This document shows, in pieces, positions 1 to 37,696 of a stretch of 64,000 bases of DNA (position 1 is its first letter; each line of letters begins with the position of its first letter). The DNA lies in the NCBI GenBank assembly GCA_021513715.1, contig CP084167.1:2400001-2464000 (forward strand), written 5' to 3'. Made by a program: the position numbers and the translations under genes. The notes below the pieces were generated by a model. That model searched no databases and was not told where the DNA came from. It worked only from the letters and a program-made list of their open reading frames with translations. This DNA is from Candidatus Heimdallarchaeum endolithica (GTDB lineage Archaea > Asgardarchaeota > Heimdallarchaeia > Heimdallarchaeales > Heimdallarchaeaceae).

Positions 1-1
1 T

Positions 2-3000: not shown

Positions 3001-3041
3001 TGTTAAGATTATATAGTTTGTCAGAAATATATTCTCAAATA

Positions 3042-6308: not shown

Positions 6309-6330
6309 GAGAACGATAAGCGTACATTTT

Positions 6331-6525
6331 ATGAGTCAATTTAGACACTATCTCTTGTCTAATACCAACCCCAAGTACTTGAGTAGTGCTAAATTGGCTC
6401 ATGTTGCCTTGTCTCTGATACAAGGATCTGACTTCCTTTTAGACCCAGTAGAGAGTTTCAGCAGATATGGGCAACGCACAAAAAATGAGAGGGTGAATTC
6501 CTTCACTCTCTCCACTCTCCTTTTT
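6331..6525 (+). ncRNA. Candidate structured non-coding RNA (two abutting 72/73-nt hairpins plus a terminal hairpin and T-run)
   Basis: Stems 6331-6354/6381-6402, 6403-6418/6458-6475 and 6487-6497/6502-6512. Mismatches are G-U wobbles on the + strand or 1-nt bulges, and GC is above the flanks. Confidence 0.6.
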
Positions 6526-6530
6526 ATTTA
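6487..6530 (+). terminator. Hairpin followed by T-rich tract
   Basis: GAGAGGGTGAA-TTCC-TTCACTCTCTC, then CACTCTCCTTTTTATTTA. Confidence 0.45.
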
Positions 6531-6757
6531 TTTTATTCAGGTGGAAAAATGTTCGACTTTTTGAAAATTGGATTTCTATTTCAGTCTGTACTTAAGAAAG
6601 AAAAGGTAAACGTTTCTTTTTTAATTTACAATTATTGTATATCTATCAAACTCATCCAGTTAAAAGTTCTGGAATTTTCTTCCCCATTTAAAAACAAATT
6701 AGGTAATTATCATTTTAAAGTGAAAAATATTAGTTTTAGGAAATAGGTGAAAGATAA

Positions 6758-9589
6758 ATGAAAAAGCAAACAATAATTGTTTTCTGTATTATCTCCTTGT
6801 TTTTAATCTCTGGATTAAAAGCGCAAGAAGTAATAAAAACTGATTGTGAAAAATGCAATGAAACACAACTAATAGAAGAAGGTGCGATAGTAGCTGTTAA
6901 ATGTTTAGATAAAACTGTCGATGGAGCAGAAATTGTAAATAAATACAGTAATTTAGGTTTACAGATTTGCAATGTAACTAATCATGATTTGTTTCAGGAA
7001 TTTATTAAAAAGAATAATTTAGTTTATTCTGTAGTTAACACGAAGATAAAAATGAAATCTGCTATGCTTTCGGCTCAAAAGCAGATTGGTTTAGGGTATA
7101 AAGAAGAAGATAATATTCTTCCTGATCCAAATACAACAGTAGCAATATTAGATACTGGAATTGATCTTACTCATAACTACTTCAATAGTTCTCAACTTCT
7201 TCATTGGAAAGACTTTGTTGGTTCTTCAGTGGAAGAAGGACATGATATTTATCTTTCACCTACTGATATTAATGGTCACGGAACAGCAATTGCATCTATT
7301 ATTGCTGGAAACTGTACTGTAAATAATAGTATATTAAAATTCGAGAAAAATGTCACAAAAGGGACTTTAAAATTTGTTTCATATCTTGAAGAAACAAATA
7401 ATGAATTTTTAACCGTTAACGTTAGTTGGTCATCTAATAACAACATTAGTGTGGGTATCTACGACTTAGCAGAAGAGAAGATACGATATTCCTCTGAAAC
7501 TTGTTCAAATGGTTCTTTTGTTTGGAATCGGAGGATATACAATTCAGCGAGAGAGTATCTTATCTTCTATGTAGCAAATGAGGAAGGAGAAAATGTAGTA
7601 GAGGTAAGAGGAGAGTTATCTTTCCCCACACTTAATACTTTCAAGGGAGTAGTTCCTGGAGCAAATATAGTTGTATTAAAAGTTTTAGATGATCAAGGTT
7701 ATGGAAATGTGACTACGCTCTTAGAAGCTTTGGATTATCTATTGACTATAAAAGAAGAATATAACATCAAACTAGTCAATTTGTCTTTAGGTTTTAGTGA
7801 GAGAATAGTAGCGGTAGATGATGCAGTTACAGCAATAGTAGAGGAAGGGATTTTTCCTGTCGTTGCTGCGGGAAATGGAGGAACATCGGGAGAAGTCTAT
7901 TCTCCAGGGAGTAATGATTATGCTTTAACTGTTGGAGCAGTAAATGAGAGAGCAGAAGTAGCTTATTACAGCAGTCAAGGATGTGATTGCCCAACTAGAC
8001 AGATTAAACCAGATGTTTTAGCTCCTGGGGGATCATTCGGAATGGCTTTTCGTCCCATAATTGTGGCAAAAAGTGGAACATATAACGAAGTCAAACAAGT
8101 GAAAGGAACAAGTTTTGCTACTGCATTTATGACTGGAATGGTCTACAGAAAAGTGATAGAAGAAAAATGGGAATATAATAAAGAAAATGTACGAAAAGTG
8201 AAATATCTTATTCTTATGAGTACATACCAATCAAGAGCAAATAACTATAACGGAGACAATGATGGAATAGCACAAGAACCCGATTTAACAATTTACGCAA
8301 AAGACAGAGTAGAAGGATGGGGTATATATGGCTATGCTCCAGTTGTAAACTATACTTTTTCAGAAAGCGAAAAATCTTACTCTGATGCAAAATATTTATC
8401 ACCTATACACATTAACCATTATGATGATTTTGAGTATCAAAGAATTTACGTTGCTGAATTATGGACACCTAAAAATACTACAGGAAGCTATAGAATAGAA
8501 TCTCAAACTAATGGATTTGTATCAAATTCTACTGATTATACTCCTCATCTTGAAAATTGGACTTTTGTTCCTAAATTATCTAATTCTTCAGATGAGTACG
8601 GAAATCCAATTTTCTTTACTCCAGAATTCGCTGAAAGGGAAGATTTAATTTACTTTAATTTAAGTCCTGGTAGCCATTACTACTTTGTAGTTGCAATTAA
8701 TAGATACTTAGATTTAGAACCTTATAAGAGTCTGGGTAATTTTTGCCTTGATACATTTGAAAAAGGAATGCTAATTTCAAATTATTTTATTTATAAAACT
8801 TGGTATGATATTCATCCTAAAGTAATTCTAGAAAATAATACTGTTTATTTTGATGAGGTTGTAAGAGGAAAAATCGAATACCCTCAATATACGAAAATGA
8901 TTAGATTTGAGATGAATGGAATAGATTGCTTGAATTACTTTAATGCTACAACTCATGAGTTCGAAATATATGGATTAAGTGAAGGATCATATCAATTGGA
9001 GTATATTCTTGAATTAGGAAAAACGAGAAAAATTTTCTGGTTTCCTGGGATATATGTAGATAAAAGCCCACCAAAACAATTTTTCTCATTTATTGATAAT
9101 TGCACTATAAAAGAGAATACTACCTATGGTTTTACAACAAAAGATTATTCTCCAACCAACATTACTATCTATATTGACGGGAAAAATTTTGGTTCAAAAA
9201 TTCTGGATCCAGGTTTTGATACAATAAGCATTACAATAAAACCGAAGGAATTACCTTATGGTTATCACAATCTCACAATATTCGCTGTAGATTTATTTAA
9301 TAGAACATTATTTGTCAATTATACTTTTGTAACTTTAGAAAATTACGAAGAACCTACTGAACCTACTGAACCTACTGAACCCACAGAGCCTACTGAACCC
9401 ACAGAGCCTACTGAACCTACAGAGCCTACAGAGCCCACTGAACCTACTGAACCTACTGAACCTACAGAACCTACTGAACCCAATAATTTTGGGAAATACC
9501 CATCGATGAAATATTTAATAGGTGCAAGTGTAATAATCGCATTTCTTGCTGCAGGGTTTATTTTGATATACAAGCGTTATGGAGGTTAA
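6758..9589 (+). CDS. Membrane-anchored S8 (subtilisin-like) serine peptidase
   Basis: Signal peptide; catalytic ILDTGID, HGTAIAS and GTSFATA motifs; oxyanion AAGN; EPT linker; C-terminal TM helix with a basic tail (YKRYGG). Confidence 0.93.
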   Translation: MKKQTIIVFCIISLFLISGLKAQEVIKTDCEKCNETQLIEEGAIVAVKCLDKTVDGAEIVNKYSNLGLQICNVTNHDLFQEFIKKNNLVYSVVNTKIKMKSAMLSAQKQIGLGYKEEDNILPDPNTTVAILDTGIDLTHNYFNSSQLLHWKDFVGSSVEEGHDIYLSPTDINGHGTAIASIIAGNCTVNNSILKFEKNVTKGTLKFVSYLEETNNEFLTVNVSWSSNNNISVGIYDLAEEKIRYSSETCSNGSFVWNRRIYNSAREYLIFYVANEEGENVVEVRGELSFPTLNTFKGVVPGANIVVLKVLDDQGYGNVTTLLEALDYLLTIKEEYNIKLVNLSLGFSERIVAVDDAVTAIVEEGIFPVVAAGNGGTSGEVYSPGSNDYALTVGAVNERAEVAYYSSQGCDCPTRQIKPDVLAPGGSFGMAFRPIIVAKSGTYNEVKQVKGTSFATAFMTGMVYRKVIEEKWEYNKENVRKVKYLILMSTYQSRANNYNGDNDGIAQEPDLTIYAKDRVEGWGIYGYAPVVNYTFSESEKSYSDAKYLSPIHINHYDDFEYQRIYVAELWTPKNTTGSYRIESQTNGFVSNSTDYTPHLENWTFVPKLSNSSDEYGNPIFFTPEFAEREDLIYFNLSPGSHYYFVVAINRYLDLEPYKSLGNFCLDTFEKGMLISNYFIYKTWYDIHPKVILENNTVYFDEVVRGKIEYPQYTKMIRFEMNGIDCLNYFNATTHEFEIYGLSEGSYQLEYILELGKTRKIFWFPGIYVDKSPPKQFFSFIDNCTIKENTTYGFTTKDYSPTNITIYIDGKNFGSKILDPGFDTISITIKPKELPYGYHNLTIFAVDLFNRTLFVNYTFVTLENYEEPTEPTEPTEPTEPTEPTEPTEPTEPTEPTEPTEPTEPTEPTEPNNFGKYPSMKYLIGASVIIAFLAAGFILIYKRYGG
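9350..9481 (+). repeat. 9-bp coding tandem repeat, (EPT)x14 + EP
   Basis: GARCCYACW units with synonymous variation. Confidence 0.95.
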
Positions 9590-9595
9590 TAAAAA

Positions 9596-12500
9596 ATGTT
9601 CAATAAAAAATATAGTTTAGTTAAATATTTTTCTTTAATATTTTTAACTTTAATTTTCGTTCAATCATTATCAAATTCTGCGTTAATAAAAGTACAAGGT
9701 GATACCAATAATACGATACAAATTAAAAATTTATTTCGTTCTCATGAAAATGTATTAGGGGGAATAGAGTTTTCTGTTTACTGTCAAGTAGAAACTAATG
9801 GGTCAAATATAGTTAAGGAGGTTTTGCTTAGATATACAGAAGATGGAGAAAACCATACAACAAGAATGTATTCTAATTTCTACAGCTATTATGTAGGTGT
9901 TGTCCCTGGACAAGAAATCAATAGTTCTATAACTTACTGGGTAGAAGCTAAAGATAATGAAAATAATACTGCAAAAAGCATTATTGTAGGGCCTTTAACT
10001 GTTTTTGATGGAAATTTACCTCTTATAGGCGATATAATACAAAACCCAGTTGTACCTACAAATTTGGACACAATAAACATAACAACATGGGTTACCGACA
10101 ACGTAGGAGTGAAGGATGTAAAAATTGAATATTGGATCAATAATCAAGTTACTTCAAATATTATATTAATGAACAACGATGGAGGTGCAAAATATGTGGG
10201 AAGTTTACCTACATGTGAAATTGGAACAAAAATTGTTTATCGTATTGTTGCTGTGGATACATCTCCATTACAAAATACAAAATATTCAGAAAATAGAACA
10301 GTGTATATTACAGATGGTGTTCATCCATATATTGTCTTTTATGAAAGTGACCCAAATGAACCAAATGCAAGTCAAGAATTTTACTTAATCGCAGAAGCAT
10401 GGGACTCTACAGGAATAGATAAAGTAAATGTTGAAGTAACATATAGTTATAATTCTATTCCAATAATTTATGAGATGGAAAACATTCCAGACACAAATTT
10501 ATACCAGAAGAAGATAGTGGGACAGCCTGAAAATACTAATATCACATTCTTTTTCACTGCAATAGATTCTTCTTCAGAACATTTGAATTCATCTACACCA
10601 ACTTATTCAATAGTAATTCATGACAATGTAAAACCAATAATAACTAACGTTGTACATGAGATTCCAACTTACTTACCCAATTATTACATTGAAATTAATG
10701 CTACAATCACTGATGTATCAGAGATAGGGCGAGCAACGATTTTCTACACTTATGATAATGGAGAAAATATTACTTTGCGGGGAAGTAATATGGTAAGATA
10801 TGCCAATACCAGCGTTTTTCATGCAGGAATTGAAACACAAACCGCTGGAACAGTATGTACATATTGGATAGATGTGGAAGACATTCATCAAAATAGACAA
10901 GTTACAGAGAATTATAGTTTAACTTTTATAGATGGTATCCCACCAAAAATAGATAATGTAAATATATCACCAATAAATTCTACAACAATATTAGATAATA
11001 CAACCGTACAAGTTAACTGTTCTGTTACAGATGAAAATAACGTGACAGTAAAATTAGAAGTGAAAATAGTAGATTATTATGGGTTTGAAATAGAAACAAA
11101 AACATTTGATATGATTGAAAAAGAAGAAAACATTTTCGAATACAATATTACAGCTACAAATGCTACAAATACAGTTTACTGGACAATAATAGCTACAGAT
11201 GATTCACTTACCAATAATACTGCTTGCTATTCAAGTCATTATGTGGTAGTAGATCAAGGTTTACCACAAATATTATTGTGTGATACTGAACCAAATGACA
11301 ATAGTGATACTCAAAGTATTTACCTTAAATTAGTTGATGATGGTAAAATAAAAAATATAAGAGTTAGACCAGGTATATCTGATGGTTTATTCACTACATG
11401 GTATAACCCCACTTATTATGCTCCAGAGTTATCTGATTCATATTGGGAAGGAACAATCACTACTCATTTGAATCTTTACGGGTTAACAAATTACTACTTC
11501 AAAATAGAAGTAACAGTTTATGATGTATGGGATAATTCCTTTACAGATACATACATATTTCTAATTGAAGATAAAACTCCTCCACAAATAAATATTGTTG
11601 ATTATCCTGAAACATTAAACGAAAATGAAGATTTTAACATAACTTTACAAATTGTGGATAACTCCTCTTATACAGCTTGGCTTTTATATCAAGTAAACTA
11701 TGGAGAAGAATATATTGCTCCAATTATTGATACTAATGGAAATTTAACAGGAACTATTTCTTCTTCTAGTTATGATTTTAGTCAAATTTTGTTAATATAT
11801 ATTTGTGCAGAAGATGAGAAAGGAAATAAAATTCAAATAGAAAATCCATTAACCTACGTCATTACTGATGGAAATCCACCTTATATATCAAATGATACAA
11901 CGCTATTTAGTTATGATAATGTAAAGATAGCCTACAATTCTACATTAACTGTTAGAGCTATTGTTAATGATCCTTCTGGAATTGACTATGTAAAATTACA
12001 TTATCGTTATGCTGATGGCAATGAAGGAGAAATAGACATGAATATTGATTTTTATAATCAATATAATTACTCCGTAGAATTTAATATTGACACATTAAAT
12101 TATAGAAACACTAATGTTGAGCTTTGGTTAATTGCGAGAGATAATAGTGGGTGGGTTGTGAACTCTTATGAAAGCAAGGTGTTAGTTTTATTTAGAGATA
12201 TTTTCAGTCCTTCTGGAAAAATTTTGGATTCTTTGGAATATATAGAATTAAAGAATGAAAATATTTCAGTTACTGCTCAATTTAAGGATGATACTTATAT
12301 AAACATCAATTCTATTAAAATGGAAGTAAAATATTTTTCTCTCTCACTTCAAAATATTTCTCTTTCTCGAGTTATTTCTTCCACAGGAGAGAATGATTAT
12401 ATAACTGAATTTGAGATAGATCCTAATCTTTTAGTTCCATATGTTGATCAAAATATATCACTAAGGGTTATTGTTGAAGATAGTCAAGGTAATATTTTTT

Positions 12501-15500
12501 TCTCTCAACCTCTCATACTATTAGTCAAAGATACTACATCACCATGTATTGACGCTGATTCTTGGATATATTCCCCTCTAAATCCAAATGTAGAAAATAA
12601 AGTTTACCTTCCTTCTGTATTTGATGTATCTGGAATAAATGATACATTTACCCTTGTTTATCTTAATTCTTCCGAGAGTGAAACAGAACAATTAAACACG
12701 CTTTATGATTCAAATTTAAGTAGATGGTATGTACTTGTACCTAGTTTTCGTGCTCTTACTTTAATTACTTTAAATGCTACTTTTTCAGATATACATGGTA
12801 ATATTAATGGAGTTTTACTAACAGAAACCATTACAGATTTAGAAGCTCCTGTTATCTACTCTTTGATTACTTCTCCTGAACCATCAGATAACAAGCCAGT
12901 TGAATTTAGTGCAAATGTTTCCGATGATGGTGAAATTTATCTAGTTGAATTAATTGTGGAACAAAACGGAATGAACATCTCATATTTTATGAGTTACAAT
13001 TCATCATTATATGAGACAGATATTAATTTAGACAAGGGAAGCTATAATATTTGGCTAAAAGCTGTAGATATGTGTAATAAAGTATCATATTATTCTTCTA
13101 CTCTGACAGTTATAGATAAGACTCCTCCATCATTAATAAGCGTAAATAGTTATCCCTATGGTTTTCAACCAATTGATAAAAATGATTTTTATTTCATTGT
13201 AGAAGGTACAGATAATGAAGGATTATCTCAAATTATAGTAGAATATACAATTAACTCATCTTCTTACAGACAAATTCAGTCGGTTGCTAATAATTCAGCG
13301 ATTTTCATGATTAACGATACGGAAATACTGCCTTACGACACAATTCTTCTTACAAATATAACTATATTAGATAATGCCGTTTCACCGAATTGTTTAATTA
13401 AAACTACAAACTTACCACAGTGGATAGTAGGTGATAATACTCCTCCTGAAATTTACTCACATACAGATCATAATTTTGACGGTAGTTCAACAAGTGATTT
13501 CTATCTAACAGTATATATTACTGAAAATGATGTTAGAAATCACACTAACATTGATTCAACTATTTATTACAAATATTACAATGATAGCTCTTGGATGAAT
13601 CAATCATTATATTATGGTGGAGAAATTATTGAAGAACAATGTTATTATGAAGTAATGTTAAGTCCACCTTGGAAAGCAGGAACATATGAATATTATATTA
13701 CTGTGTCACTAAATGGAATGACGACACTATATTATAACGAAACAACTCCATTAACTTTTGCAATTGAAGATTTTACTTCTCCAATCATCAAATCTGATAG
13801 CTTGGTACACACTTCTCAAGACGAGCTTCAACCGATTAATAGCAGTAGTGATGAAGATATAAATGATTTTGTAATAAGTTTCATAGTAGTAGAACATGAA
13901 ACAGGGATAGATCTTACAATTGGTGATACTAACACAGGAATAAACGTTTTGCTTAGTTTGGATAGTGGTTCTAGTTGGACAAAATATGGGGAAGTAACTA
14001 ATGCACAATTTCTCGGCAATGGAGAATATCAAATTACATATACAATATCAGCAGATGATTTAAGAACATTCATTCACCATGAAACAATTTTATATAAAAT
14101 CAAATTGAAAGATTCTGCTAATAATGAAAAAATCTACACCTCTTTTGAAGGAGATACTTTTTCTTTCAACATAAAAGATTTATATCCACCACAAATTCAA
14201 TGGATACTAATAACAAAAGAAAGCAATCCTTCTCCAAATTATTGGGCTTATGATTTAGAAAATCTACCAGAAGGATATTACCTTGTAGATACAACTTCAA
14301 CACTTAACTATTCAATAACAGGCATTTCTCCCTTATTAGATGAAGGAGATTTTGGATATTCGGATATTATAAAAATTGGTTTGAAAATAAAAGATCATAC
14401 TGCGTTTAATAACCCCCCAGATATCAGAACTTATTTCAATTATGGTACAGAAAATATTAATATAAACAAAACAATATATGGTAACTCTGAATTTTTATTT
14501 TGGGTAGAGTTTGATTTAGCTAATATCGTCGGTTCAAATAACTTCAAATCACATAAAGACACCACTGAAACACCATTTAGGTTGCAATTAAACTATTACT
14601 TTATACTTACTGATTCATATAGCAATGAACTTACAAGTCAAAATTATTCAATCTATCTTTATGATACATATGCACCAAAATTAACTAATGGTTACAATAG
14701 ACCATACTTTACAGACTTAAATGATAATGTACGAGAAGATGAAGGTAAATGTGTATTACCAAATGAGTATAATAAACTTATGTTTTCTTTTGAAGAAGTA
14801 AGTTTAGTAACACAGAACGATATTACAATTCAGTTTTACGATACAAAAGGGGAAATATTCTATTACGAAGTAAACAATAACGAAATTAATTTGGATAATA
14901 ACGGATTTCAATATTCTGTTTCAATTACAATGGATTATAACACTTTTTTAAGTTTTCCTGATGTAAGATTTTGTATAAAGATAGTTATTAGTCCTAATGA
15001 TGGTCTAATATTAGAAAAATATTATTTGTTAGATATAGAAGCTTTAAATGTTTATTATGTTAAAATGGTAGCTAATTATAATGAAATTAATTGGGCAGTG
15101 GATGGAGGAACAGCGATAGCACATGCAGAAACTGGAGATATATATCCTGGTCAACCTTTAAATGAAGTAACTATTACTCTTGGAAACTTAATGTATGAAA
15201 CACATATTGAAGTTTATGCACATTATGAAATGACTGACAAATTTAATCCTACAACTAGTGATATTGTCTCTGTATCTCAGCTACTAAAGAGTTTTATCCA
15301 AACTCCTTCTTCTGATTTAAAATTAACCAAAATAATAAACTCTTGGGATGCTAATCCTGAATATGCGGGTAATATATATCTATTTTTGAAACTTTATTAC
15401 ACGTGGGATATCCCCTCTAATGCTATCTCCTCTTCAGATATAACAGAAGGAAAATGTTACATCTACATTCATCATAATAAAGCTGTGGAAGAAGTAGATT

Positions 15501-31100: not shown

Positions 31101-34100
31101 CACATTTTGGAAAAATGTACATCAAAATTGGAAAGCTTATGTTATTCTTCTCTCTTCAATAGCCTTTACCGCTTACCTTTATTATGCTTGTATAACAATG
31201 GGTACCACTTATAACCCTCTCTTTTTCTATGTCGGACAAATAGTCAAGTTTTCGCTTGTTGTTCAAGGTTCGATGTTTGTTGGAATGGTTCTATTAGATT
31301 TGTTTAATAAACCTAACTTTATAGCTGAAGGACTTAGTTTCCAATTTAGTTATATGATAAATAAGATAAAAACAATTTTTTGCAACGTTGCTAAATTTAT
31401 TACCTCTGTGTGGAATGTTCTTTGGGACAATAATCTCACTTTTAATGATAAACTTGAATATCTAAAAGGACTAGCAAAACGTGCTCTTGATACTGTTATT
31501 TCTTTCTTCAAGAAAATATATAAGTACCTTACAGTTGCAATGAAAGCCTTGTACGGATTTATTAAAAATGGTGTAAGAGATATTAGCTATCAATCTTTAT
31601 CTTATACTACTAGACGTTTTCTCTTCATTTTACTTTGGATATTTACCGTCGGAGGGTGTACTGGACTTTCTAGTACATACGAATATGATTTTGTTAAATC
31701 AAATACAGCAGATCTTCTCCATCTAAATTATCTCGCTAACCATATTGATGCTCTAGATAACAATATTCTACTCAATTATTATGGAGGAATAGACTTCAAA
31801 GCAGGTTCAGAAAACCTATTTATGACTTTACTTATGTCATCAGCTCATAGTTTCGCTAAAACTGTTTCTGGAGAAAATAATTATCCTTACTTTGATGAAG
31901 AACAATGGTTAAATAATGATACTCGAGCTTATTGGGCAACAGAATTCTTGAGAGAATTGGGATTTGTTGTACAAGTAAGTGAAACAGTAGGTGCAAACGT
32001 TTCAAAAATTTTTGTTCCTTATACTAAAGATAGAAAAAATAACCATCTACCAGAATCTGAAAACAAAGAGGCAGATATCGTTGTTTACAAAGTTTATGAT
32101 AATGAATACGACCCTGACTCTACGTGGCATTATGAATGGTTTATGGGACTAAGTGACAATGTCCATCTTCCTGGAGGAGTAGCACTAGGAGTATCTGAGT
32201 CCTTCTTTATGGGCGCAATGGAGATGTTCTTAGCTAAGTTTGATTATACCGCTTTATGGCAAGATGTAAGAGATGTTTACTTAGATCCAAGCGACTTCTA
32301 TCGCCATTTGGCAATGGTACAAATACCAGGAGACATAGCTGCTATTCTAAGTCAAGGACCTGACCCCTATCTCGTTGCACAAGATATATTACAAAAACAG
32401 ATGAAAGATGGACAACAATTCAAACATGCTTACGAAGAAACCTTAGAACTTTTATCAGAAGATATGAGAAATTTGGGACTTATGAGTACTAAACAGATTG
32501 GTTTTAACCCACAGAGAGAATATGTCAGATTGAACTTTGATTCAATAGAAGATATAGTCGCTAATAGAAAATATTTATCGAATCTTAAACAAAGAAAAGA
32601 ACTTGCACGAATGTTACAATCAGGAGTGATACTCCAATTTATTCAATGGGGACTCTTTGCTCCTCAAATGATTTATCAGAAAGTTTTAGGAACAGTAATG
32701 AGTTTACCTGAAGCTTTAGCTTTTTCCGGATTCCAACTTTTTCTCCAGATGTTTGGTGGAAGAATGAGTACAAGTAAAATGGTTCGTATGCTATCTAACA
32801 CCCAACTTTCAACTTTACAACGTGATAAACGTTGGTACCAACTAATGCAATCGTTTGGACATGCTTATTGGTACAATTATGTAATGGAATGGCTCTACTC
32901 TTTACAAGATATTTCTGACTCAAAAATACTAGAAATATTATCCACTACTTACCCAGAAATGGTTCCAAGATTATCAAAGTTCCTACCAATTGCGGAAAGA
33001 GAAGGAATAGAGCTAAAAGATAAGTATGTAGATGGAAAAAATGCAAAACTAGACTACTTCTCATCAGATGAAAGTTTCAAATCTAAGATTACTGATGAAA
33101 TGATTAAAAAATTCTTCATTGAAGAATTAAAAAAACTAATAGATAGCATTTTTGATACTAGAGGAAATTACAAAAATATTCTCCAAGAGTTTAACGAACA
33201 ACAAATAGATGAATTTAGTAAAAAGGATATAGATAATATAATTAAAACCTTAGATAGCTCTAATAATGACTTATCCTCAGTTCGAGAATTACTTTATCGA
33301 TTTATTAACCCTCAACTTGTAGGAAATTTAGAAAATGGGAAAATCGTTGTAGGTTTAGTAATAGACAATAGAGGAAATGTTAGAATACCTCTAACTAAAA
33401 TAACTAAAGAAGGTATATTAAATGGACAGATACCTGAAGCATATTCTATAGGCACAAAATACTTCAAGGGCTCGTTTATGTACAACATCCTTAAACAAAT
33501 TTATAACTTAGTTCAACTGAATGCACTCTTTAACGAAGATAGACTATTGAAACTTACAGAAAGTTCATCTAGGAAAATAGATGATGATATTAAAAGCTTA
33601 ATGACAAAGCTAATTAACGAAGATAAACAACTGCAATCTTGGTTAGTTAACAATAAACTAATTACCGACGAAAAACTGAAATTTACTACAAAAGAGCTGA
33701 ATGAAAATAAATTTGGGAATATACTCCTAAAAATTCTAAAAAGATATTATTCTACTGATATTCCGCAGTCTGTTCAAGGAGAACTGTTTTTCATAGGATT
33801 AACTTTCTTTAGAGACGCCTTAATTTTAACCAGTGATGTTCATAAAAAAATGAAAATTGCTCAAATAAATGCTTTAAATGAAATAAGAATCAAACATGGT
33901 TTACCAATTATTGACATTATAAGTCCTTGGTTAAAAATAATTTATGATGAAAATGGTAGAGCAACAGATATAGTAGCAAATGTTAAGGATGAGCATGGAT
34001 ATTATTTGAGTTGGTTAAAGTTATTTTTACGTTCAGAAGAAACCAAAAATCCATATGATGACTATCACGCTGGAAAAACTGGATCCGACGGACTAGTAAA

Positions 34101-37100
34101 AGGAATAAAAGGCTATGTATTTCAAGATGAAAGTACTAAAGAATTTATATTTTATGACGTACTAACTAAAATGGAATTTAAACTGTCTATCTCTAATCAT
34201 GGAAAAAATCCTTCTTTATTTTCACCTAAAGCTGTATTTGAAATTCCATATTCACAGATGACAGAGGAAAGTAAAGCATTTGTTGAAAAAATGGATTATA
34301 ATATTAAAACTGATCCAAATGATCCCAACTCAAAAAAAATTGAAACGCATGAACTAATTAACTATGGATTGAAAAACTCAAAGAATGTAATAGAAACAAT
34401 TCAAAGATATTTAGACCTATATCCTAACAAGGTTAGTCAAAAGGTTTATGAAACAATTACTGAGAATGAAATAAAAAATTTATTTAATTCTAAAAATAAA
34501 GATGCAGGTTTCAATGTGATGCATGTCTACCAAAAACAAACATTATATGCTGATTTATACGCTCTTGCTGCAGGAGAACTTGTTCCTATTAAAGACGAAG
34601 ATGGATTTATTATTCTATTCGATAATGGAAAAGAAACAAATTACAGACAAATATTACTAAATGAAAAAGATATGTTGGGAAAGAGAGTAAGCAATATGAA
34701 GTTTGGTTTGTATACTCCAGTATATGAAGTAAATAATTTAGAAAAAATTAATATTAGAGGAAAATATTATCCCATCTATCTTCATGGGGAAACATTCGCC
34801 AGACATACGAAAAATGGAATGAAATATAATAACATTATACCCATTACTTGTGCAGATAACACTAAACTAAATATCATGCCAGCAATATTTTATGAACCTG
34901 AAAATAAACTATTTTACTCTTTCAAATCTGATATGTCTATTTGGACAGGTAAAACGGCAGAAGAATTAAGAAAAAATATTAAACAAGATTTAGATGGTAA
35001 AGTCTCAAATGAAAACGATAATGTTAACTTACCCTATATCTATATTTCAACAAATGCAGAAATTGTTAACAATCAAATCAAAGTGGAACTAGCACAAAAA
35101 TTAGTCAATAATCTAGCTAACGGAGAAATAGATGATCAAGGAATAGAAAAGAAAATAAAATGGAAACTATCCCTATTTAATTCAGTATATGAACCTAAAG
35201 AAGGAAATAACTGGTATGACTACTATTCACCGAATGTGGGAACATTTGCAAGTATAGGGACTAATGGAAAAAGTTCAAGAATCACTAGCGATTTGATCAT
35301 TAAGAATGGGGACAGGCTTGAAGCAAAAGAAGTAAATTTTGAATATGGGAAGGTACCAATTAGATATTTAAAATTATTCAACATAATGAGTACTGGCGAT
35401 TATTATAGCAGTAATTTTGATAAATATAGTAAGGAAGGTTATAACAAATTCTATTCAGTTCAAGGAAAACTATTAATGTCTATACAAGATGGAATAGAAT
35501 GGGATATGCACGTAGAAGATATAGTGGGAGATTTATTTTTACTCAGAAATTCTATAAAAGTAGAAGTTGATTCACAAAAAAAAGGACAGGATAATATTGC
35601 ACTCCTAGGCAAAAACGGTATAATAGAGGCTTTAAGAGGTGGTCAGACTAGATGGAAAAAGATGACAATTAAAGAACTAGAAAATCTAGCACAAGCTATT
35701 CAAATCAGACATAAATTATTTAAATTCCTTGATACAGAAATAAATGTTGGAACGGAGATGGTTAATGCAGTTGGAATAAAATATTATTCTTTAGAGATGG
35801 AACAAGAAATCTATGCTGCAGGTGTAGAAATAGAAAAAATAAAAGATACATATGACATCAAAAAATCAATAGATGATATAATAAGCATAATGCAAAAAGT
35901 ATATGGAAAAGAAGAAATTAATGTGTATGATGAAGAAATCCCATATATAGAAACAATATACAATGAAAAAATATACTTGTATGATTTTATAAATTACAGA
36001 GACGGAACAATTTCAGAAAGTAAAAGGAAAAAGATAGAAGAAGAATTAGTAAACAATAAAATAAAAGTAGGTACAGAATCTGGAATATACGGAAGCTCAA
36101 GTATTAATATCCTAAATTTGATTAATCCAAAAGACAACGAATTAATAGGTCGAGTAAATATTAAATCAATTTCTACTATGTTAGAAGCCGTATTTTCACA
36201 AAAAAGTGAATATAGTATTGGAACTTTCTTACCTGAAATATTTGAAGAACCCAGAAAAGAACTGAAAAAAATATACAGGTTAAAAGAAGAAGAAAAACTT
36301 ACTCCTAAAATAATATTAGACAATGAACCCTATTTAAAAGAAGCTTTAATTATGTATATTATAGATTTAGCAGAAGCTATATATAAGAAATCTATTCACC
36401 AAAATTTAAATTCAAGAGGAATTTCCCAAATAAAGGACACACTTATATATTATAATAAAAATAAATTACAAAAAATTGGTTCAATCATAGAGTATGAGAA
36501 TAAAAGGAAACAAGTAATAAATTATTTAAAAGAAGAACTTGGACTAAATAGAAATTCACAAAAATATAGCGAAGAAGAAGAGTACCTAAATCTTTTAAAA
36601 ATATTTATTATAGACATTTTTCGATTTAATGTAGATCTTAAACTTTTCCAAAAATTCATTTTCCTAACATCAAAACAAGAATTAGTAGGTGGTTCAGGAT
36701 GTTACAAGAGAAAACTACTAGTACCAATGCTTGCATTAAACTTTTTGATGAAAATATATGATATTTATACTGGATATAGAACATGGAAAATAATATCAGA
36801 TGAGGAAATAATAATAGATAATGGAGCAGGACTGGATGGACTGAGGTTTCTAAAAAGAATCAACAGAATAGAAAATAAAGCATTAAAATTATATGAAGAA
36901 ATAAGAACAAAAGCAAAATTAGAAAATACATTAATAACAAAAGAATATTTGGAAAACTATAGAACTGTCAACACAGTAGAAAAAACAGAAGAAAGAATGA
37001 TAGTTGATGTACTAATAAAACTCTACAGTGAAAATGTCCCCATGCCTGCAACTGTTATACTAAAGAACTTCAATGGAGAAATAATTAAAAAACCGACAAA

Positions 37101-37404
37101 AGAAGATATATTATATATACAACTATACACAATAGTGAGATCACAACAAGAACTAGACGCAATAAATGCATTAAAAGGAATAGATTTGTTGAAATTTTAT
37201 ATGAGCGCTACAATACTAACTGTACATAATAGATTATTAAAAGACAAAATAAAAGGCTCTTTTTGGCTTAAAATGAAAAGTGGATTTGAGAAACTTCTAT
37301 CTGACACTGGAGCTACAGCAATTGATGTATCCGAAGCGTTGATAACCTATGCAAACATGGAAAAATACTTCTTTATATGGCGAAATAATTATTCCGATCG
37401 ATAA
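19105..37404 (+). CDS. Giant (6099 aa) exported/membrane protein: beta-rich ectodomain, hydrophobic helical region, charged C-terminal region
   Basis: Uninterrupted 18.3-kb ORF with an ATGA overlap to the upstream stop; N-terminal signal/TM; lectin/LamG-like beta segments; TM-like helices at aa ~4010-4190 and ~4510-4550; K/E-rich last ~1500 aa. Confidence 0.85.
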   Translation: MKKIITNKKIKSLKVSFLTIIIIIGVTFGDITHVISDYSYHPTNEFYFFHDRYFSVNNTFGWKGDYDIKSKSLSILDDHSIKKSVDISTWNGYSPLLLTVRTNTESSDAIDQLLIYDSNTSSIIMEKNNINVLRSVRIDYYIFPSTEYITIKIKDSDSNVYDCNIKEVALFTPQYHQIDLLSNTYAVPEEDYPLARWYETEYGYVTDQYLEHNARVVKTNEVEYGFSELSFYFEVPSVYMPTLNYMFSSAKETEQTIYQIDISVLDFDARTSYYTLKSEKEIYDSYPTINAVDLSSYAGHYINLKVKITWSNNIELSKLGLIINYLFIDGIVNEDYYTPGDTIAAEEYSKSLYKSKVKEIDDFTFIEGEGYVSYSNPLLMIDNNVEGGYLSYQIQNSVSVYEDDFYDIDLDGWYYNTNYTSNVDSSLYTDTLTNETKTTVHYDQNFNDSYIIDTSFTILGTSESRQSTFTILFNYDNNTHSGYGLRFGYGDEEKGYISLIRIINNLETELYFRNEEILKDVSYSISIIYSKNGTTVEISNSETINVYDSAFNNGFLGFAFDTIKAQITSVSVQMRDEYAIDRLHFRAMNTGTENVDVNFYVDQIDGNGLSRQLLAKIVLEKGKGLKQYTCPINPELIGFRVILSVEIVTPFIFPIYLDTIQFSGATPFGYTRYAWDYYRKGSKAYVDHDKLYYDGNEPSAYETPFDFTDSTDEIFYPKFGMNTPWQKIYDYEDSSNLFTSFDKFGDWKGIIDVTKSIHFSLTNNTNSMYGVKSLAPFQISGDFDIHLTFSSTSSFSFYDVLQVGLKNNEGDTFLAVGRKGDIYYLLIDGQERKVVSLTQSLTDFVFHLQWNNGTLTFEFGEKEIFSLFLDEPALYQSISNIELVIASQDFFDTTLKSVSAAYKNGYTTLRHRIFEEKFTDKSFSQWEVENSSTDYARIVNSQLYSYFGNSSDWHGVTLSHKQSLGLNFILEYGFDVLQSDKESKGKQKLSLMSNETEVLSVILEDIQSNDETPVMKINLYGTLIDSYILPSICINHALRIKKEGLNVQISYYDTLSWKDYLSFQINPNELNIDELVLSQEKYENLPYSDFYINYLSVDRYYYNMGYETNAVHSVLNEEFYSTITTDSNWIIDYTNCNESDIDFVNDEDILYLTPNNPNIATGTINFTRILSNVTDIEFTLDLMYSLIAIYKTGEFIININGGDLSLWLKFNGENITLTLSSQIESQSTTINKNFFDHNTLRLISSSSGLTLYSDFIKLGKLQPLLSIDSYAVSLRSVSLIIQTNFNSNPISFGLGRLAISDSDITVYQSPWSDGYTIINDYFSELNWATRGYNYYTQPFTITDGSQLQTKFTTERNDWYGNTYSKDYTFEMDFFMDVRFSFILNGDNGYQSFILENKIKYQNLIEVRFISENESICIQLLIQNVVVDSIIYEHSIIGGILRIQRIGDRVDVYGDWISNQHSFEKMFSYTNNLKDIYIDRIKIRQLSKTSSAHTMCIDGLYLNTRTLPVPNPYTPAIGEFVPLTYSTTFQSIDDYTSYVYGNVNSENVPFTHTNGLQTLFDFDSFSNEFRGRTFYKDIVCVDDFIFTFDISVNISYNKVGLLNIEFLDNSYQTVFLIQVITNDTLKINLYLRSSLIYTYEDEISSLLTNSFRLARAGTKILFGVFRGDYYVPLGSPLESSVSLLSSFNSDLFGMKITQAALFNNVTSPNSIVLNRIEINTASSDESNLIYRESINDPNFIASYDMWIRNETKLSISAFSNYYTGENITERLQLSIYLLPIGMPFSIDPENYVGSIIFLDNDIDTYTHSLMIIGYTGLFEVIVCIDRMIPISLFTLETSAPSSYAEAEKDYEYQSDIFGWEEEFEGYTNPTGWDESVWTKEIFISQETMTKDLWTCYNTQIQFTSSSLIIKHISQYKGTVTINIPPVNVSLYPFLSFDIMTTERFASESISLVIGNKSIDITPTIDTTLGFTTVRKNLYELIYPNVNETVGQITFAIYNPCTITIRNLQIYKIYDYDYVHYSNGENNSTADSVADIGFHVGTNTLIAFLLGRYCSQSRAEQELDIVNNIKAMYDVPVVSFYSDDINFIYWFNDSINLNKRVLLIVFDEIPTKLLDTYYYYDDFGRPFETSLLEDFQRNGNYLLWIGSAPFSKGVNPEGNLIDLDYEDYKQFSGQIVETDIDLQVNISDFGEELGISPYSTSWFVNVSSMPSSLGEWIGGYVNITGLIYNSSEHGNDILLHPYNYYFHMLSSFLGHNYGFLGVTDTSILVRLLDIVFIPPTQYDKIFGNLILKGPIFLEKRWSFEDQFQFLYVGTTDLVNVIIDNKSLTYAFPDILELEEYSISSVDGFSLVTNSSNIVSIDSITFINQGASTTPSVFNFDEPNSLDFKQNFVPISGGFDYDNGDENYVLKWRNNLSQPYSAALLDTQSYGDSVIQFEMGVYPTGDETHIGGIMLNIPVINSSSLFFDSLFIGFKMVGGGDLTFPLSLFVARYYSPTSYTVLYEKEITKLGNSFGGNNDILAPLKLTIIKTVTSTGLKLSIYSKVYRVYPYYGADELLEIQIENDGIYNCKTAWFGQDYSFDYDMRGTGKIGIFTTSTSFTFHHLSVYTTIANTCGDYVNLASGTSHISSDGLWLEGIMETAFQENVDTNYIFSIFDPSQSVASFDKKKYVEVSIVNTLGQKRSIVFSLGGWGTYVDNESIVGQPLYSYRTVDPFYSISSKEYDGTYMVIVTVDKGEIVFKVWERDSLSTVYTKEFVGFEAINSEAEIKLRISTINTVAYIDYIANGKMQASDLSFAYGRGLLGAGEVSYWLKGDTRYSLVLDNSLITSSYRVSNESLNTLYSTFLLNETSNLGYVSKYNSNTVYNISIIENTLYFNNNNMNFTFVNEHWYDLSYSFNLTYQILSITDTSKNEACPVEWEFYVNTSIVDGTEYSIDIFSFDGIVLIDKLSLPSLSSNFYDKDLGEWTYDTNYNVPSFSNIYSNTSSYLQLMIYSLMGPVNVTVFGDGKYIGSTLLEYNPFSSYSPAIINLENFDTTGLHKYTLYIDNVVEFDSLCLGETLPITEFLYTAPDDDNSYTDSRFSLDFSDSPYYNEKLGKVLCLHNADNYSVSISNLTSVSSLELYYKIPSEDKLTITLPLKATYVNDYTYDTRNILFELILSGDETKDTEIYTQGYTNYQLIQVWDTITDDNIWHYYQSAFTFYLQSVEYMSVGQSKTYNLYNNFDVSSPTDSLYNLYSLSAIESFDNYNLSFIATTTTNVFIDSFSLYTPPTPTFPALDLRTFALSSSAHWKSVTTNNLGRLDFGDMFNLTPYDDFSFYFSFSLETIAECNGFLSISTNLAFTFLTPTMWDYQPKFIDQPTSTLLAIPISAIGGLNRFIFRVYNHGLLNLTNTTSLYFQINVGLDHTFTPRLNSIQLSKNELNQTYIPEWVVSTPSTWIDLEGEYTSASDWVPVYNNASSSWGTFDILQRSVPLAGDVVINNVTLSEESFEYSQTNNYGQIQILNDFDPELYSNNTQIMCTFYYYLFADITSENNFSLISNLDISNITAIVFDGLIIHQPTSWNGSSFSTLVPINNTENHFQLDISSNPYTISNNSYLGYELSTNWHKKGFHSVTFFLNGVNQYTHNFSMVIDGLTDILVPFASATDYSLDISDKLSQERIYITLDEYKGGKNIPYFSYVDVARRPYASKDYLYSVVNFDGIAFHVTRMVWIGVADYNTQDKIGYAICAIITDQGTNHEVHELYVQKIEVMSAVPCSTDLELEEKAQSMGLSPTSSLSHKLGLSQMYIASAISSSRHKSVVLGLQESNYKLEVINNTVTLFLTNIKDIEYWNTGEEHLHTGVLSNYNVTIDNHTFSNFNATQMKIVLQDRLITINLLSQQLHILSGENVFAYILGEDSLSVSSGSSKLIASSTGLFLISEVTPISADSRPLSSSDSLMSAQESLYEMAENIDLEGYFIAIARSRWRQFHDFIQTNVLCPLKTLAKSSNLVVKYIFNQLFTHNSTFWKNVHQNWKAYVILLSSIAFTAYLYYACITMGTTYNPLFFYVGQIVKFSLVVQGSMFVGMVLLDLFNKPNFIAEGLSFQFSYMINKIKTIFCNVAKFITSVWNVLWDNNLTFNDKLEYLKGLAKRALDTVISFFKKIYKYLTVAMKALYGFIKNGVRDISYQSLSYTTRRFLFILLWIFTVGGCTGLSSTYEYDFVKSNTADLLHLNYLANHIDALDNNILLNYYGGIDFKAGSENLFMTLLMSSAHSFAKTVSGENNYPYFDEEQWLNNDTRAYWATEFLRELGFVVQVSETVGANVSKIFVPYTKDRKNNHLPESENKEADIVVYKVYDNEYDPDSTWHYEWFMGLSDNVHLPGGVALGVSESFFMGAMEMFLAKFDYTALWQDVRDVYLDPSDFYRHLAMVQIPGDIAAILSQGPDPYLVAQDILQKQMKDGQQFKHAYEETLELLSEDMRNLGLMSTKQIGFNPQREYVRLNFDSIEDIVANRKYLSNLKQRKELARMLQSGVILQFIQWGLFAPQMIYQKVLGTVMSLPEALAFSGFQLFLQMFGGRMSTSKMVRMLSNTQLSTLQRDKRWYQLMQSFGHAYWYNYVMEWLYSLQDISDSKILEILSTTYPEMVPRLSKFLPIAEREGIELKDKYVDGKNAKLDYFSSDESFKSKITDEMIKKFFIEELKKLIDSIFDTRGNYKNILQEFNEQQIDEFSKKDIDNIIKTLDSSNNDLSSVRELLYRFINPQLVGNLENGKIVVGLVIDNRGNVRIPLTKITKEGILNGQIPEAYSIGTKYFKGSFMYNILKQIYNLVQLNALFNEDRLLKLTESSSRKIDDDIKSLMTKLINEDKQLQSWLVNNKLITDEKLKFTTKELNENKFGNILLKILKRYYSTDIPQSVQGELFFIGLTFFRDALILTSDVHKKMKIAQINALNEIRIKHGLPIIDIISPWLKIIYDENGRATDIVANVKDEHGYYLSWLKLFLRSEETKNPYDDYHAGKTGSDGLVKGIKGYVFQDESTKEFIFYDVLTKMEFKLSISNHGKNPSLFSPKAVFEIPYSQMTEESKAFVEKMDYNIKTDPNDPNSKKIETHELINYGLKNSKNVIETIQRYLDLYPNKVSQKVYETITENEIKNLFNSKNKDAGFNVMHVYQKQTLYADLYALAAGELVPIKDEDGFIILFDNGKETNYRQILLNEKDMLGKRVSNMKFGLYTPVYEVNNLEKINIRGKYYPIYLHGETFARHTKNGMKYNNIIPITCADNTKLNIMPAIFYEPENKLFYSFKSDMSIWTGKTAEELRKNIKQDLDGKVSNENDNVNLPYIYISTNAEIVNNQIKVELAQKLVNNLANGEIDDQGIEKKIKWKLSLFNSVYEPKEGNNWYDYYSPNVGTFASIGTNGKSSRITSDLIIKNGDRLEAKEVNFEYGKVPIRYLKLFNIMSTGDYYSSNFDKYSKEGYNKFYSVQGKLLMSIQDGIEWDMHVEDIVGDLFLLRNSIKVEVDSQKKGQDNIALLGKNGIIEALRGGQTRWKKMTIKELENLAQAIQIRHKLFKFLDTEINVGTEMVNAVGIKYYSLEMEQEIYAAGVEIEKIKDTYDIKKSIDDIISIMQKVYGKEEINVYDEEIPYIETIYNEKIYLYDFINYRDGTISESKRKKIEEELVNNKIKVGTESGIYGSSSINILNLINPKDNELIGRVNIKSISTMLEAVFSQKSEYSIGTFLPEIFEEPRKELKKIYRLKEEEKLTPKIILDNEPYLKEALIMYIIDLAEAIYKKSIHQNLNSRGISQIKDTLIYYNKNKLQKIGSIIEYENKRKQVINYLKEELGLNRNSQKYSEEEEYLNLLKIFIIDIFRFNVDLKLFQKFIFLTSKQELVGGSGCYKRKLLVPMLALNFLMKIYDIYTGYRTWKIISDEEIIIDNGAGLDGLRFLKRINRIENKALKLYEEIRTKAKLENTLITKEYLENYRTVNTVEKTEERMIVDVLIKLYSENVPMPATVILKNFNGEIIKKPTKEDILYIQLYTIVRSQQELDAINALKGIDLLKFYMSATILTVHNRLLKDKIKGSFWLKMKSGFEKLLSDTGATAIDVSEALITYANMEKYFFIWRNNYSDR

Positions 37405-37696
37405 ATAAGAAAACTAAAAGAAACATTAATAGATAAATAACTAAAAACCCTCTTCCATCTTTTTTAAAAGGTTAGAGCTCTTTTGTCCCGTTTTCTATAG
37501 ATTTTTTTTCTTTTAAAAATTTTTCCAAAGAAAACGAAAAGAATGAATTTTTGAATTTTATTTTTTTTTAGTCTTTTATGTGCGTTTAATTCTTTTTCTA
37601 TGAACTTTTTCAAGAGCAAGATTGACGTACAACAATTTGTATAAAAATCAAGTTGATCTCACTATTTTAATAAGTGTCCTATGTTACTTTATTTTA

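Follow-up and report, generated by a model that had tools for sequence, protein, structure and literature searches.

A subtilase gene and two giant genes are inherited and exchanged as one cassette in an aloposon of Candidatus Heimdallarchaeum endolithica

In Candidatus Heimdallarchaeum endolithica, a gene for an S8 subtilase and two genes for giant proteins are translationally coupled, and the three are inherited together and swapped en bloc; this cassette is restricted to one family of Heimdall-group archaea. It lies in a window of 64,000 nucleotides, the whole stretch of DNA that was analysed, and is the cargo of an integrated element. Tentatively, it is read as an apparatus for surface contact in which the protease is an accessory, an interpretation that we favour while giving it somewhat less than an even chance.

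The cassette and its element

The S8 subtilase ORF (6758..9589, + strand, 943 aa) is followed by the ORFs of giant 1 (9596..19108, + strand, 3170 aa) and giant 2 (19105-37404, + strand, 6099 aa). The S8/giant 1 junction reads TAA, 6 nt and ATG, the giant 1/giant 2 junction is an ATGA overlap of 4 nt, and SD-like motifs stand 7-9 nt 5' of the three starts (GGAGGT, AGGAGTG and TAGGTGA, respectively). None of the frames has an internal stop, and chance open frames of such length are excluded because the DNA has 31% GC, so the original prediction of three intact and tightly coupled ORFs stands. It had also described three exported and membrane-anchored proteins. Hydropathy, on which this point relies, agrees, with a signal-like N-terminal segment in each protein, C-terminal anchors at 919-937 of the S8 protein and 3128-3146 of giant 1, and a membrane block inside giant 2, at about 4005-4190.

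The three ORFs make up 78% of a 39.5-kb insertion, which is missing at the corresponding site of the sister species genome G006. Synteny with G006 is found on both sides of the insert (86-89% nt) and resumes at 37481, where the element meets the host at the right-hand copy (37481..37528) of a 48-bp imperfect direct repeat. The left-hand copy is next to a tRNA gene, 2 kb beyond the left end of the window, and the element begins about there; G006 has a single site that aligns to both copies. Left of the element are the tRNA, 7 kb of core genes and then another aloposon. The ABC ATPase and FtsX permease genes right of 37480 were considered as operon members and rejected, being G006-syntenic host core genes that are absent at the other loci, and tRNA-Arg(TCG) at 48340 was rejected as attachment site, also by G006 synteny.

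The insertion is almost certainly one of the published aloposons of Ca. Heimdallarchaeum endolithica (Wu et al. 2022, PMC8813620). Aloposons are the sole non-viral integrated elements so far reported from Heimdall-group archaea (PMC11529989). As described in the text and supplementary material of Wu et al. 2022 (PMC8813620), they have tandem genes for proteins of 3,000-6,000 aa, the giants being named Otus and Ephialtes, four consecutive upstream genes that include a MinD/ParA-like ATPase gene, and an integration at a tRNA site 3' of the giant genes; the hosts are Ca. H. endolithica and aukensis. The two giant genes represent about 80% of each aloposon. Tandem giants had been taken as the aloposon hallmark, rightly so for the ORFs of 3170 and 6099 aa with their 4-nt overlap. 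The element shares with published aloposons and HeimV2 this tandem pair, the upstream MinD/ParA gene set, here wHTH (99 aa), 91-aa, 378-aa and ParA (271 aa) genes conserved in all three giant loci of the genome, and the tRNA-associated integration, the insert being located between the tRNA gene and the host ABC gene. While the tRNA of published aloposons is downstream of the giants, the tRNA in this locus is at the backbone end and the giant end abuts the ABC gene. The three tandem giant pairs of the genome are three different cassettes, p1, p2 and p3. The locus studied is p3, and p1, which fills the 44.2-kb interval from the 16S rRNA gene to tRNA-Arg(TCT), matches the description of HeimV2. 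No protease is mentioned in the text or supplementary material of Wu et al. 2022 (PMC8813620), figures aside. The additions to the published aloposons are the linkage of the S8 gene, along with its loss and decay, the breakpoint between cassette and backbone, the predicted lectin fold and the sequon-avoiding tail.

The backbone before the cassette contains the conserved gene F9 (378 aa; 1..1096, + strand, with its start 41 nt left of the window), whose product has 88% aa identity to the HeimV2 copy and 32% to the p2 copy and gives a weak winged-helix/H1-like match and nothing else in Pfam. It is followed by the MinD/ParA-like ATPase gene (1080..1895, + strand; Pfam AAA_31/CbiA, PHROG ParA-like), a backbone marker with 90% aa identity to the p1 copy. 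Next is a variable region (2025..6254), which contains a multi-copy repeat of ~300 nt, a minus-strand 314-aa ORF and, by Pfam and PHROG, genes for a DUF4145 protein and an Mrr-like nuclease, and which has no nt similarity to p1, while both of its flanks are 79-89% identical. The conserved untranslated leader or promoter region (6255..6757, + strand) lies directly 5' of the S8 gene. Over 528 nt, ending 13 nt into the S8 ORF, it shares 79% of its nucleotides with the DNA that precedes the S8 gene of p1, and its 76-nt core is also found directly 5' of giant 1 in the S8-less p2. Up to this breakpoint, the p3 and p1 backbones have 86-90% protein identity and 79-89% DNA identity, whereas past it identity between the S8 proteins is 38% and the giants can hardly be aligned. 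From these alignments, the S8 gene and the giants are exchanged as a single cassette behind a conserved leader.

The S8 protein and its linkage to the giants

The S8 protein matches Pfam Peptidase_S8 (PF00082, E 3e-37), and its nearest solved structure is the subtilisin-like serine protease 3afg. The catalytic triad and oxyanion Asn are present in S8 order (D132/H174/N373/S452), and these residues are aligned in the remaining cassette copies, p1 excepted. The protein is built by a signal peptide, a pro-like region, the catalytic domain with an insert of ~100 aa after the catalytic His, a beta-rich C-terminal region, an (EPT)n stalk and a TM anchor, and has 26 sequons where 9.6 are expected. 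Its C-terminal region has a full-length match only in G002 C16 and G003 C178, the cassette copies closest to it. S8 proteins of the cassettes group in a clade of their own, separate from the housekeeping S8 genes (91/96 support).

The co-occurrence of the S8 gene with giant pairs, proposed as a check, is found at most homologous loci: the gene is directly 5' of giant 1 at 6/8 assessable loci of three genera (p3 and p1 of G000; C16, C39 and C7 of G002; C178 of G003). It is missing at p2 and, for this query, also at the G006 aloposon. In the p1 (HeimV2) copy, GTS is changed to SPD and N to D, so the catalytic Ser and the oxyanion Asn are lost; this copy is predicted from its residues to be inactive, while the giants alongside are intact. 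Protease activation had been proposed, but activation or cleavage of the giants is not obligatory, because two loci are without the S8 gene and the HeimV2 copy is catalytically dead. The giants show no conserved candidate cleavage site, and their processing by the S8 protein is putative.

Parts of the two giants

Giant 1 (9596..19108, + strand) has a signal-like N-terminus, Ig-like repeats, a C-terminal half, and a TM anchor with a short basic tail. The tandem Ig-like repeats, of ~100 aa each, cover aa 42-1353 plus 2795-2887. When a profile is built from orthologues of one repeat, it recovers the others in register (E 6e-7 to 7e-3), and a weak Pfam Big_7 match is also found. Self-BLAST at E 1e-3 gives no internal repeats. 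The earlier reading of a giant as a stalk is thus supported by giant 1, a repeat stalk. Two repeat analyses were set aside: permissive iterative HMMs on the three cassette proteins were over-fitted and their E-values discarded, and an Ig-like repeat common to the S8 protein and giant 1 was dropped, as non-circular orthologue profiles give E 0.09-0.6.

The ectodomain of giant 2 (aa 1-4004; 19105..31116, + strand) has a glycosylation-type composition and about 30% identity across eight homologues, and its sequon density of 16.7 per 1000 aa is that of signal-bearing proteins of the same genome. Piecewise AlphaFold and Foldseek, which had been suggested as a check, are informative for this region but not for the tail: the AF2 model of aa 560-1350 has moderate confidence (mean pLDDT 64), while that of tail residues 4225-5000, from an 8-row alignment, reaches pLDDT 39. 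The structures that Foldseek retrieves with the aa 560-1350 model are LG arrays of neurexin/laminin and galectins (E 1e-12 to 1e-8, with neurexin LNS arrays at E 1e-12). VIA-align of model residues 551-747 with lectin-fold domains gives Z 13-16.5 and rmsd 3-4 A over 170-193 residues. The corresponding module (aa 1110-1306; 22432..23022, + strand), one among several beta-sandwich modules of giant 2, is assigned by this model a ConA-like (L-type) lectin or LamG fold, and sugar binding is putative.

These Ig-like and lectin-fold modules are what ordinary adhesins, or a sheath for rock or syntrophic partners, would be made of, so the giants could be host-beneficial cargo with the S8 protein as a general cell-envelope proteinase or sheddase that travels along. 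The S8 layout is indeed like that of cell-envelope proteinases, the Ig-like unit is also present in many proteins of 400-800 aa in related genomes, and tandem giant surface proteins are known from bacteria (PMC12863079). This alternative is nevertheless unlikely, if tenable: the S8 clade is cassette-specific, coupled to giant 1 and co-diverging with the giants, and a plain adhesin leaves the sequon-avoiding orphan tail of giant 2 unexplained.

Between ectodomain and tail is a membrane block (aa 4005-4190; 31117..31674, + strand; from hydropathy and alignment), in which two hydrophobic helices, a K-rich loop of ~100 aa, a short hydrophobic segment and GGC[ST]G follow each other. R/K plus 11 hydrophobic residues plus GGC[ST]G is invariant in type-A giants, and a lipobox-like motif is found in 3/266 signal-like N-termini genome-wide; an internal lipoprotein signal before the tail was considered, but finds no backing in this genomic usage. 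Net charge is positive in the loop that precedes the last hydrophobic segment and negative in the stretch that follows this segment.

The tail (aa 4225-6099; 31777..37401, + strand) is helical, K/E-rich and sequon-avoiding, has low S/T and Cys and, by hydropathy, no strongly hydrophobic segment. Its proximal module is conserved (invariant E, AL..D.RD, F.R, QIP.D and F.P), its middle is hypervariable, and its end cap, the last ~170 aa, is conserved among type-A giants (26-28%); an orphan copy of this cap is encoded elsewhere in the genome. No usable match to the tail is found in Pfam, PHROGs, PDB (sequence and profile) or Atlas, nor by a word-indexed homologue search, and an exhaustive search of 1.84 billion representative proteins gives two relatives, one giant-2-like and equal in length to the homologue in G005 (6210 aa), the other an orphan 2438-aa metagenomic protein of uninformative context.

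N-x-S/T sequons in the tails of seven homologues number 20, against 83 reversed motifs and about 93 expected, while the ectodomains have 294 forward and 288 reversed motifs with 306 expected. For cytoplasmic proteins of the same genome the ratio of observed to expected sequons is 1.01, and none of 3000 cytoplasmic windows reaches a level as low as that of the tail. As the depletion is absent in cytoplasmic proteins, it suggests that the tail is exported yet glycan-free, which is probably the case. Giant 2 would otherwise be a transmembrane receptor or anchor that connects an outer lectin array to an inner 210-kDa helical scaffold, with roles such as signalling or tethering to the ParA-partitioned element. 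The three hydrophobic segments that separate ectodomain and tail, and a helical, K/E-rich tail that is poor in S/T and Cys, agree with this arrangement, but it is rather improbable, since sequons are four-fold below the reversed motif in 7/7 homologues, with no depletion in cytoplasmic proteins, and the charge around the last hydrophobic segment favours a tail outside.

Proposed function and comparison with known systems

The original prediction joined these parts into protease-activated giants, an adhesin stalk plus a membrane-inserting delivery subunit, for non-canonical transfer or competitor killing. Its claim that conjugation and capsid genes are absent holds for the whole element, including the ~2 kb left of the window, where Pfam and PHROG find no conjugation, capsid or recognisable integrase genes. 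A T4SS left of the window, a possibility it had raised, is present neither in the element nor left of it; no VirB4/VirD4- or HerA/FtsK-type ATPase is found, ParA being the only P-loop protein of the element. The absence of such genes fits a delivery route, as do the three-part layout of giant 2, the probably exported, glycan-free and fast-evolving tail, and the orphan copy of its end cap. The part on a membrane-inserting or delivery subunit therefore survives to some extent, as the membrane block, the separate C-terminal part and sequon avoidance fit an exported subunit that is delivered or released. Nothing found speaks for the part on DNA transfer or killing: neither a Walker A nor an HExxH motif is conserved in the giants, no toxin domain or toxin/immunity signature is found, and the 77 nt from the giant 2 stop to the element end contain no ORF that could encode immunity. 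A polymorphic-toxin reading was rejected on this short distance and on the conserved extreme C-terminus. Transfer or killing by protease-activated giants is thus quite improbable, the protease being dispensable or dead in three loci and the tail being without a strongly hydrophobic segment. Contact-dependent delivery by giant 2, in which its lectins would dock on a neighbour and the subtilase would free the tail to be inserted or handed over, is equally doubtful. The other defence-type genes of the element (Mrr-like, DUF4145) and three different cassettes in one genome with fast-diverging surface-exposed parts might point to a shield, with giants that mask or remodel the surface and a protease that degrades incoming virus or rival-element proteins to guard the resident element, but conservation is seen in the ectodomain and variability in the tail, and this reading is very unlikely.

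In the contact apparatus that we favour, all three proteins would be exported and retained on the outer face of the cell membrane. Giant 1 would be the long Ig-repeat stalk, the lectin-fold array of giant 2 may bind glycans on another cell or surface, and its 1,900-residue helical tail would reach outside, behind an internal signal-like segment, and be kept free of N-glycans, which would make it the sole unprotected part of the apparatus. The heavily glycosylated and co-anchored S8 protein would be a cassette-specific accessory that trims or releases giant parts, cutting most plausibly at or near the tail. It may double as a structural partner, which could be the reason why the catalytically dead HeimV2 copy is retained. 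The net function would be an element-encoded cell-surface contact or recognition, and either spread of the element or host fitness may be its purpose. Some observations count against this contact apparatus. The S8 gene is absent from p2 and, for the query used, from the G006 aloposon, and the p1 copy is predicted to be inactive. A naive count of three hydrophobic segments puts the tail in the cytoplasm, and the K/E-rich, low-S/T and helical tail has a cytoplasm-like composition.

Mycosins (MycP) are subtilases with a C-terminal membrane anchor that are encoded in the mycobacterial ESX or type VII secretion locus, and their structural role persists without catalysis. The cassette resembles them in having an anchored subtilase in a locus for a putative surface machine, and the catalysis-free role parallels the dead HeimV2 copy. 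While mycosins belong to bacterial secretion loci, the aloposon has an archaeal host and, in Pfam and PHROG searches of all element genes, neither Ecc components (EccB-E) nor an FtsK-like ATPase; the S8 fold is the sole relation. In Pseudomonas, LapA is a repeat adhesin of several thousand residues and an RTX/T1SS substrate, whose surface retention is under the control of LapG, a dedicated periplasmic cysteine protease encoded nearby. The cassette, in contrast, has an S8 serine protease and membrane-anchored giants but lacks a T1SS; the ABC/FtsX genes nearby are the host core pair.

Giant membrane-associated proteins linked to a subtilisin-type domain are also described in Omnitrophota (West-Roberts et al. 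2023, bioRxiv 10.1101/2023.11.21.568195), where N-terminal S8 or C39 peptidase domains are suggested to cut the giant into pieces. There the peptidase is fused and the hosts are bacteria, whereas in the cassette it is a separate anchored protein of an archaeal mobile element; cleavage is putative in both. Like the CdiA/Rhs proteins of contact-dependent inhibition and polymorphic toxin systems, giant 2 is a very large exported protein that is conserved towards the N-terminus and diverges fast towards the C-terminus, and an orphan fragment of its C-terminal part is encoded elsewhere in the genome. Unlike them, it has no immunity gene, toxin domain or demarcation motif, and its extreme C-terminus is conserved (26-28% in type-A giants).

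Three findings make the puzzle of the giants amenable to defined experiments: a dedicated anchored protease accompanies them in a cassette that is exchanged as a whole, one giant has lectin-fold modules, and the tail of this giant is selected against N-glycosylation, a testable lead to its function. Should the tail not be delivered, the cassette still illustrates clearly how modular cargo is exchanged on near-identical backbones. If the tail is released or delivered, the apparatus would represent an archaeal cell-contact system of a new kind. Delivery, if true, would give the integrase-less and conjugation-less aloposons their own route of cell-to-cell interaction or spread, in the lineage closest to eukaryotes, which is the one used to model the cell-cell associations that preceded them.

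The protease-giant cassette and its element

The cassette is formed by three ORFs on the + strand, an S8 subtilase (6758-9589, 943 aa), giant 1 (9596-19108, 3170 aa) and giant 2 (19105-37404, 6099 aa), none of which has an internal stop. The S8 TAA is followed by 6 nt and the ATG of giant 1, the two giants overlap by ATGA, and the SD-like sequences GGAGGT, AGGAGTG and TAGGTGA lie 7-9 nt 5' of the S8, giant 1 and giant 2 starts, respectively. Chance cannot explain open frames of such length at the 31% GC of the window, and the tight coupling and intact frames of the original prediction are confirmed. Export and membrane anchoring, which it also proposed, are predicted from hydropathy: all three proteins have a signal-like N-terminal segment, S8 and giant 1 each carry an anchor at the C-terminus, and the membrane block of giant 2 lies internally, near residues 4005-4190.

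The source genome (G000), one contig of 3.33 Mb with the window at 2,400,001-2,464,000, has three tandem giant pairs, p1, p2 and p3, the last being that of the window. The p1 pair takes up the 44.2 kb from tRNA-Arg(TCT) to the 16S rRNA gene, which is where Wu et al. 2022 (PMC8813620) place HeimV2 of Ca. Heimdallarchaeum endolithica, so the window element is one of the published aloposons, whose giants are named there Otus and Ephialtes with no function assigned to them. Synteny with the complete sister genome G006 (86-89% nt identity) breaks off immediately to the right of a tRNA gene that lies 2 kb outside the left window end, and picks up again at 37481, 77 nt past the giant 2 stop; both insert ends align to a single G006 site, and the insert is thus flanked by an imperfect 48-bp direct repeat. 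The cassette makes up 78% of p3 (~39.5 kb), which also has two PD-(D/E)XK-type nuclease genes, a wHTH gene, ParA, two unannotated genes and a variable stretch carrying DUF4145 and an Mrr-like nuclease. The absence of conjugation and capsid genes extends to the whole element, in which none of the genes could be recognised as an integrase, a capsid gene or a conjugation ATPase. The ABC ATPase and 952-aa FtsX/MacB-type permease straight after the element (37622-41337), easily misread as operon members, were rejected by comparison with G006, where they are conserved core genes, as belonging to the host.

Several other features were observed in these regions. A ~300-nt repeat in the p3 variable region (5633-5926) occurs in G006 in nine or more scattered copies (71-73% identity) and therefore resembles a MITE or IS remnant, while a second repeat, ~70 nt long and immediately to the right of the element/host junction (37586-37657), has several G006 copies and one ~3 kb past the giant 2 stop of HeimV2. 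The borders of p2, the adjacent aloposon (G000:C1:2352127-2352247 and 2390385-2390608), carry mutually inverted tRNA-Asn sequences, which suggests inversion at the attachment site. A GyrB gene (61107-63998), split by an intein whose endonuclease domain is of the LAGLIDADG type, continues past the window end, and a ~390-nt repeat family represented in G006 (L039:8518-8907) has ~20 copies at 81-84% identity over the G000 chromosome.

Linkage and decay of the S8 gene

The S8 protein matches Pfam Peptidase_S8 (E 3e-37), its nearest solved structure is the subtilisin-like serine protease 3afg, and D132, H174, N373 and S452 are all present, so that by sequence it is a genuine subtilase. Cassette S8 proteins share a layout of signal, catalytic domain, beta-rich region, Thr/Pro/Glu stalk and anchor, and their clade is separate from the four housekeeping S8 genes of G000 (support 91/96, long branches). 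The C-terminal region has whole-length matches only in the two closest cassette copies, on G002 contig 16 and G003 contig 178 of related genomes.

All giant-matching loci in related genomes were retrieved and their proteins clustered; two that contig edges truncate are not counted as assessable. The order S8, giant 1, giant 2 is found in p3, p1 and G002 contigs 16, 39 and 7, and is spread over two contigs in G003; p2 lacks it, as does, with this query, the G006 element that resembles p2. The co-occurrence on which the protease proposal depended thus holds in six of eight assessable loci, from three genera within one family. The cassette family has a very narrow distribution (5 of 400 Asgard genomes, every one from a single family).

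On coupling, the p3-p1 comparison is the most informative. Backbone proteins of p3 and p1 are 86-90% identical and their DNA is 79-89% identical until 13 nt inside the S8 ORF, beyond which identity falls to 38% between the S8 proteins and the giants can hardly be aligned. This drop makes the S8 start codon the exact beginning of a cassette that is exchanged or diverges as one unit, and a conserved leader precedes it. The leader is conserved 5' of S8, and in the S8-less p2 its 76-nt core directly precedes giant 1.

The p1 copy of S8 (G000:C1:2237637-2238848) is shortened to 705 aa and has SPD for GTS, which removes the catalytic Ser, and D for the oxyanion Asn; both p1 giants are intact despite it. 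The gene is absent from p2 and, with this query, from the G006 element, and no cassette-type S8 protein was found anywhere in G006. With a dead copy in p1 and none in p2 and G006, S8 catalysis in cis is not obligatory; the active p3 enzyme could work in trans within G000, an option lacking in G006. Of the proposed protease activation, the linkage of an S8 protein with its active site to the giants stands, and its necessity does not. Mycosins have a structural role, and by analogy a retained dead copy would fit such a role.

Lectin-fold modules and the giant 2 tail

The N-terminal part of giant 1 is built of tandem ~100-aa units; a profile from orthologues of one unit alone recovers the others in register (E 6e-7 to 7e-3), and this kind of unit is frequent in smaller proteins of related genomes. 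The C-terminal half of giant 1 carries no assigned domain. The giant 2 ectodomain (aa 1-4004) keeps ~30% identity over eight homologues. Piecewise modelling of its residues 560-1350 gave an all-beta structure (AF2, pLDDT 64) whose Foldseek matches are LG arrays of neurexin and laminin as well as galectins (E 1e-12 to 1e-8), and residues 1110-1306 superpose on L-type lectin-fold domains (VIA-align, Z 13-16.5, 170-193 residues).

The giant 2 tail (4225-6099) has no match in Pfam, PHROGs, PDB or Atlas, just two relatives among 1.84 billion representative proteins, and no conserved Walker A or HExxH motif. Its proximal module is conserved with invariant residues, its middle is hypervariable (10-16% identity) and it finishes in a conserved ~170-aa end cap. 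A stand-alone 140-aa ORF with a frameshifted remainder (G000:C1:1204775-1205304), which shares 71% identity with the final ~170 residues of giant 2, lies without adjacent aloposon genes.

N-glycosylation sequons (N-x-S/T) in the tail were compared with control protein sets. Cytoplasmic-like proteins of G000 have 726 for 722 expected (obs/exp 1.01, 6.0 per 1000 aa), signal-bearing proteins 984 for 726 (1.36, 16.8 per 1000 aa), the p3 ectodomain 66 for 55 (1.21, 16.7 per 1000 aa) and the p3 S8 protein 26 for 9.6 (2.7, 29.8 per 1000 aa). The p3 tail has 3, against 15 reversed motifs (S/T-x-N) and 14.5 expected (0.21, 1.6 per 1000 aa). Pooled over seven homologues, tails have 20 forward and 83 reversed for 92-94 expected (0.21), and ectodomains 294 and 288 for 306 (0.96). 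Of 3000 windows of 1900 aa drawn at random from cytoplasmic protein, none reaches the depletion of the tail, and the most extreme tails are those of p1 (0 against 13 expected) and G002 contig 7 (1 against 12). The cytoplasmic controls undercut an inference of a cytoplasmic tail from sequon scarcity. Sequon counter-selection is not to be expected in a domain that never meets oligosaccharyltransferase, so the simplest reading would be a tail that is exported yet kept glycan-free. Charge changes from net positive in the loop ahead of the last hydrophobic segment to net negative in the stretch behind it, which agrees with a putatively exported tail. This segment is short and followed by GGC[ST]G, invariant in type-A giants, a subgroup of giant 2 homologues; genome-wide usage does not back its reading as a lipoprotein signal.

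Candidate functions of the cassette

Best supported among the readings, though tentative, is that the cassette forms an element-encoded surface contact apparatus, in which giant 1 would be an Ig-repeat stalk, the lectin array would also take part and the giant 2 tail would be the exported naked portion. The heavily glycosylated, anchored S8 protease would be an accessory cutter or partner, with the unglycosylated tail as its most plausible target. It is rather unlikely that the giants are a plain adhesin benefiting the host. Giant 2 as a receptor with a cytoplasmic tail is unlikely, for while the three hydrophobic segments, if counted, would place the tail inside the cell, its sequon depletion (0.21) is unlike cytoplasmic proteins (1.01). 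The original prediction of a machine for spread or competitor killing finds no positive support and is quite improbable, since no motor or toxin domain was found, an immunity gene is missing and the giant 2 C-terminus is conserved. A surface shield is very unlikely.

The element and its giants are already published (Wu et al. 2022, PMC8813620). As far as the accessible text and supplements of that paper go, in which S8 linkage and decay, the S8 start codon as the breakpoint of the cassette, a lectin fold and controlled sequon statistics were not found, these four results are what the present analysis adds to the biology of aloposons.
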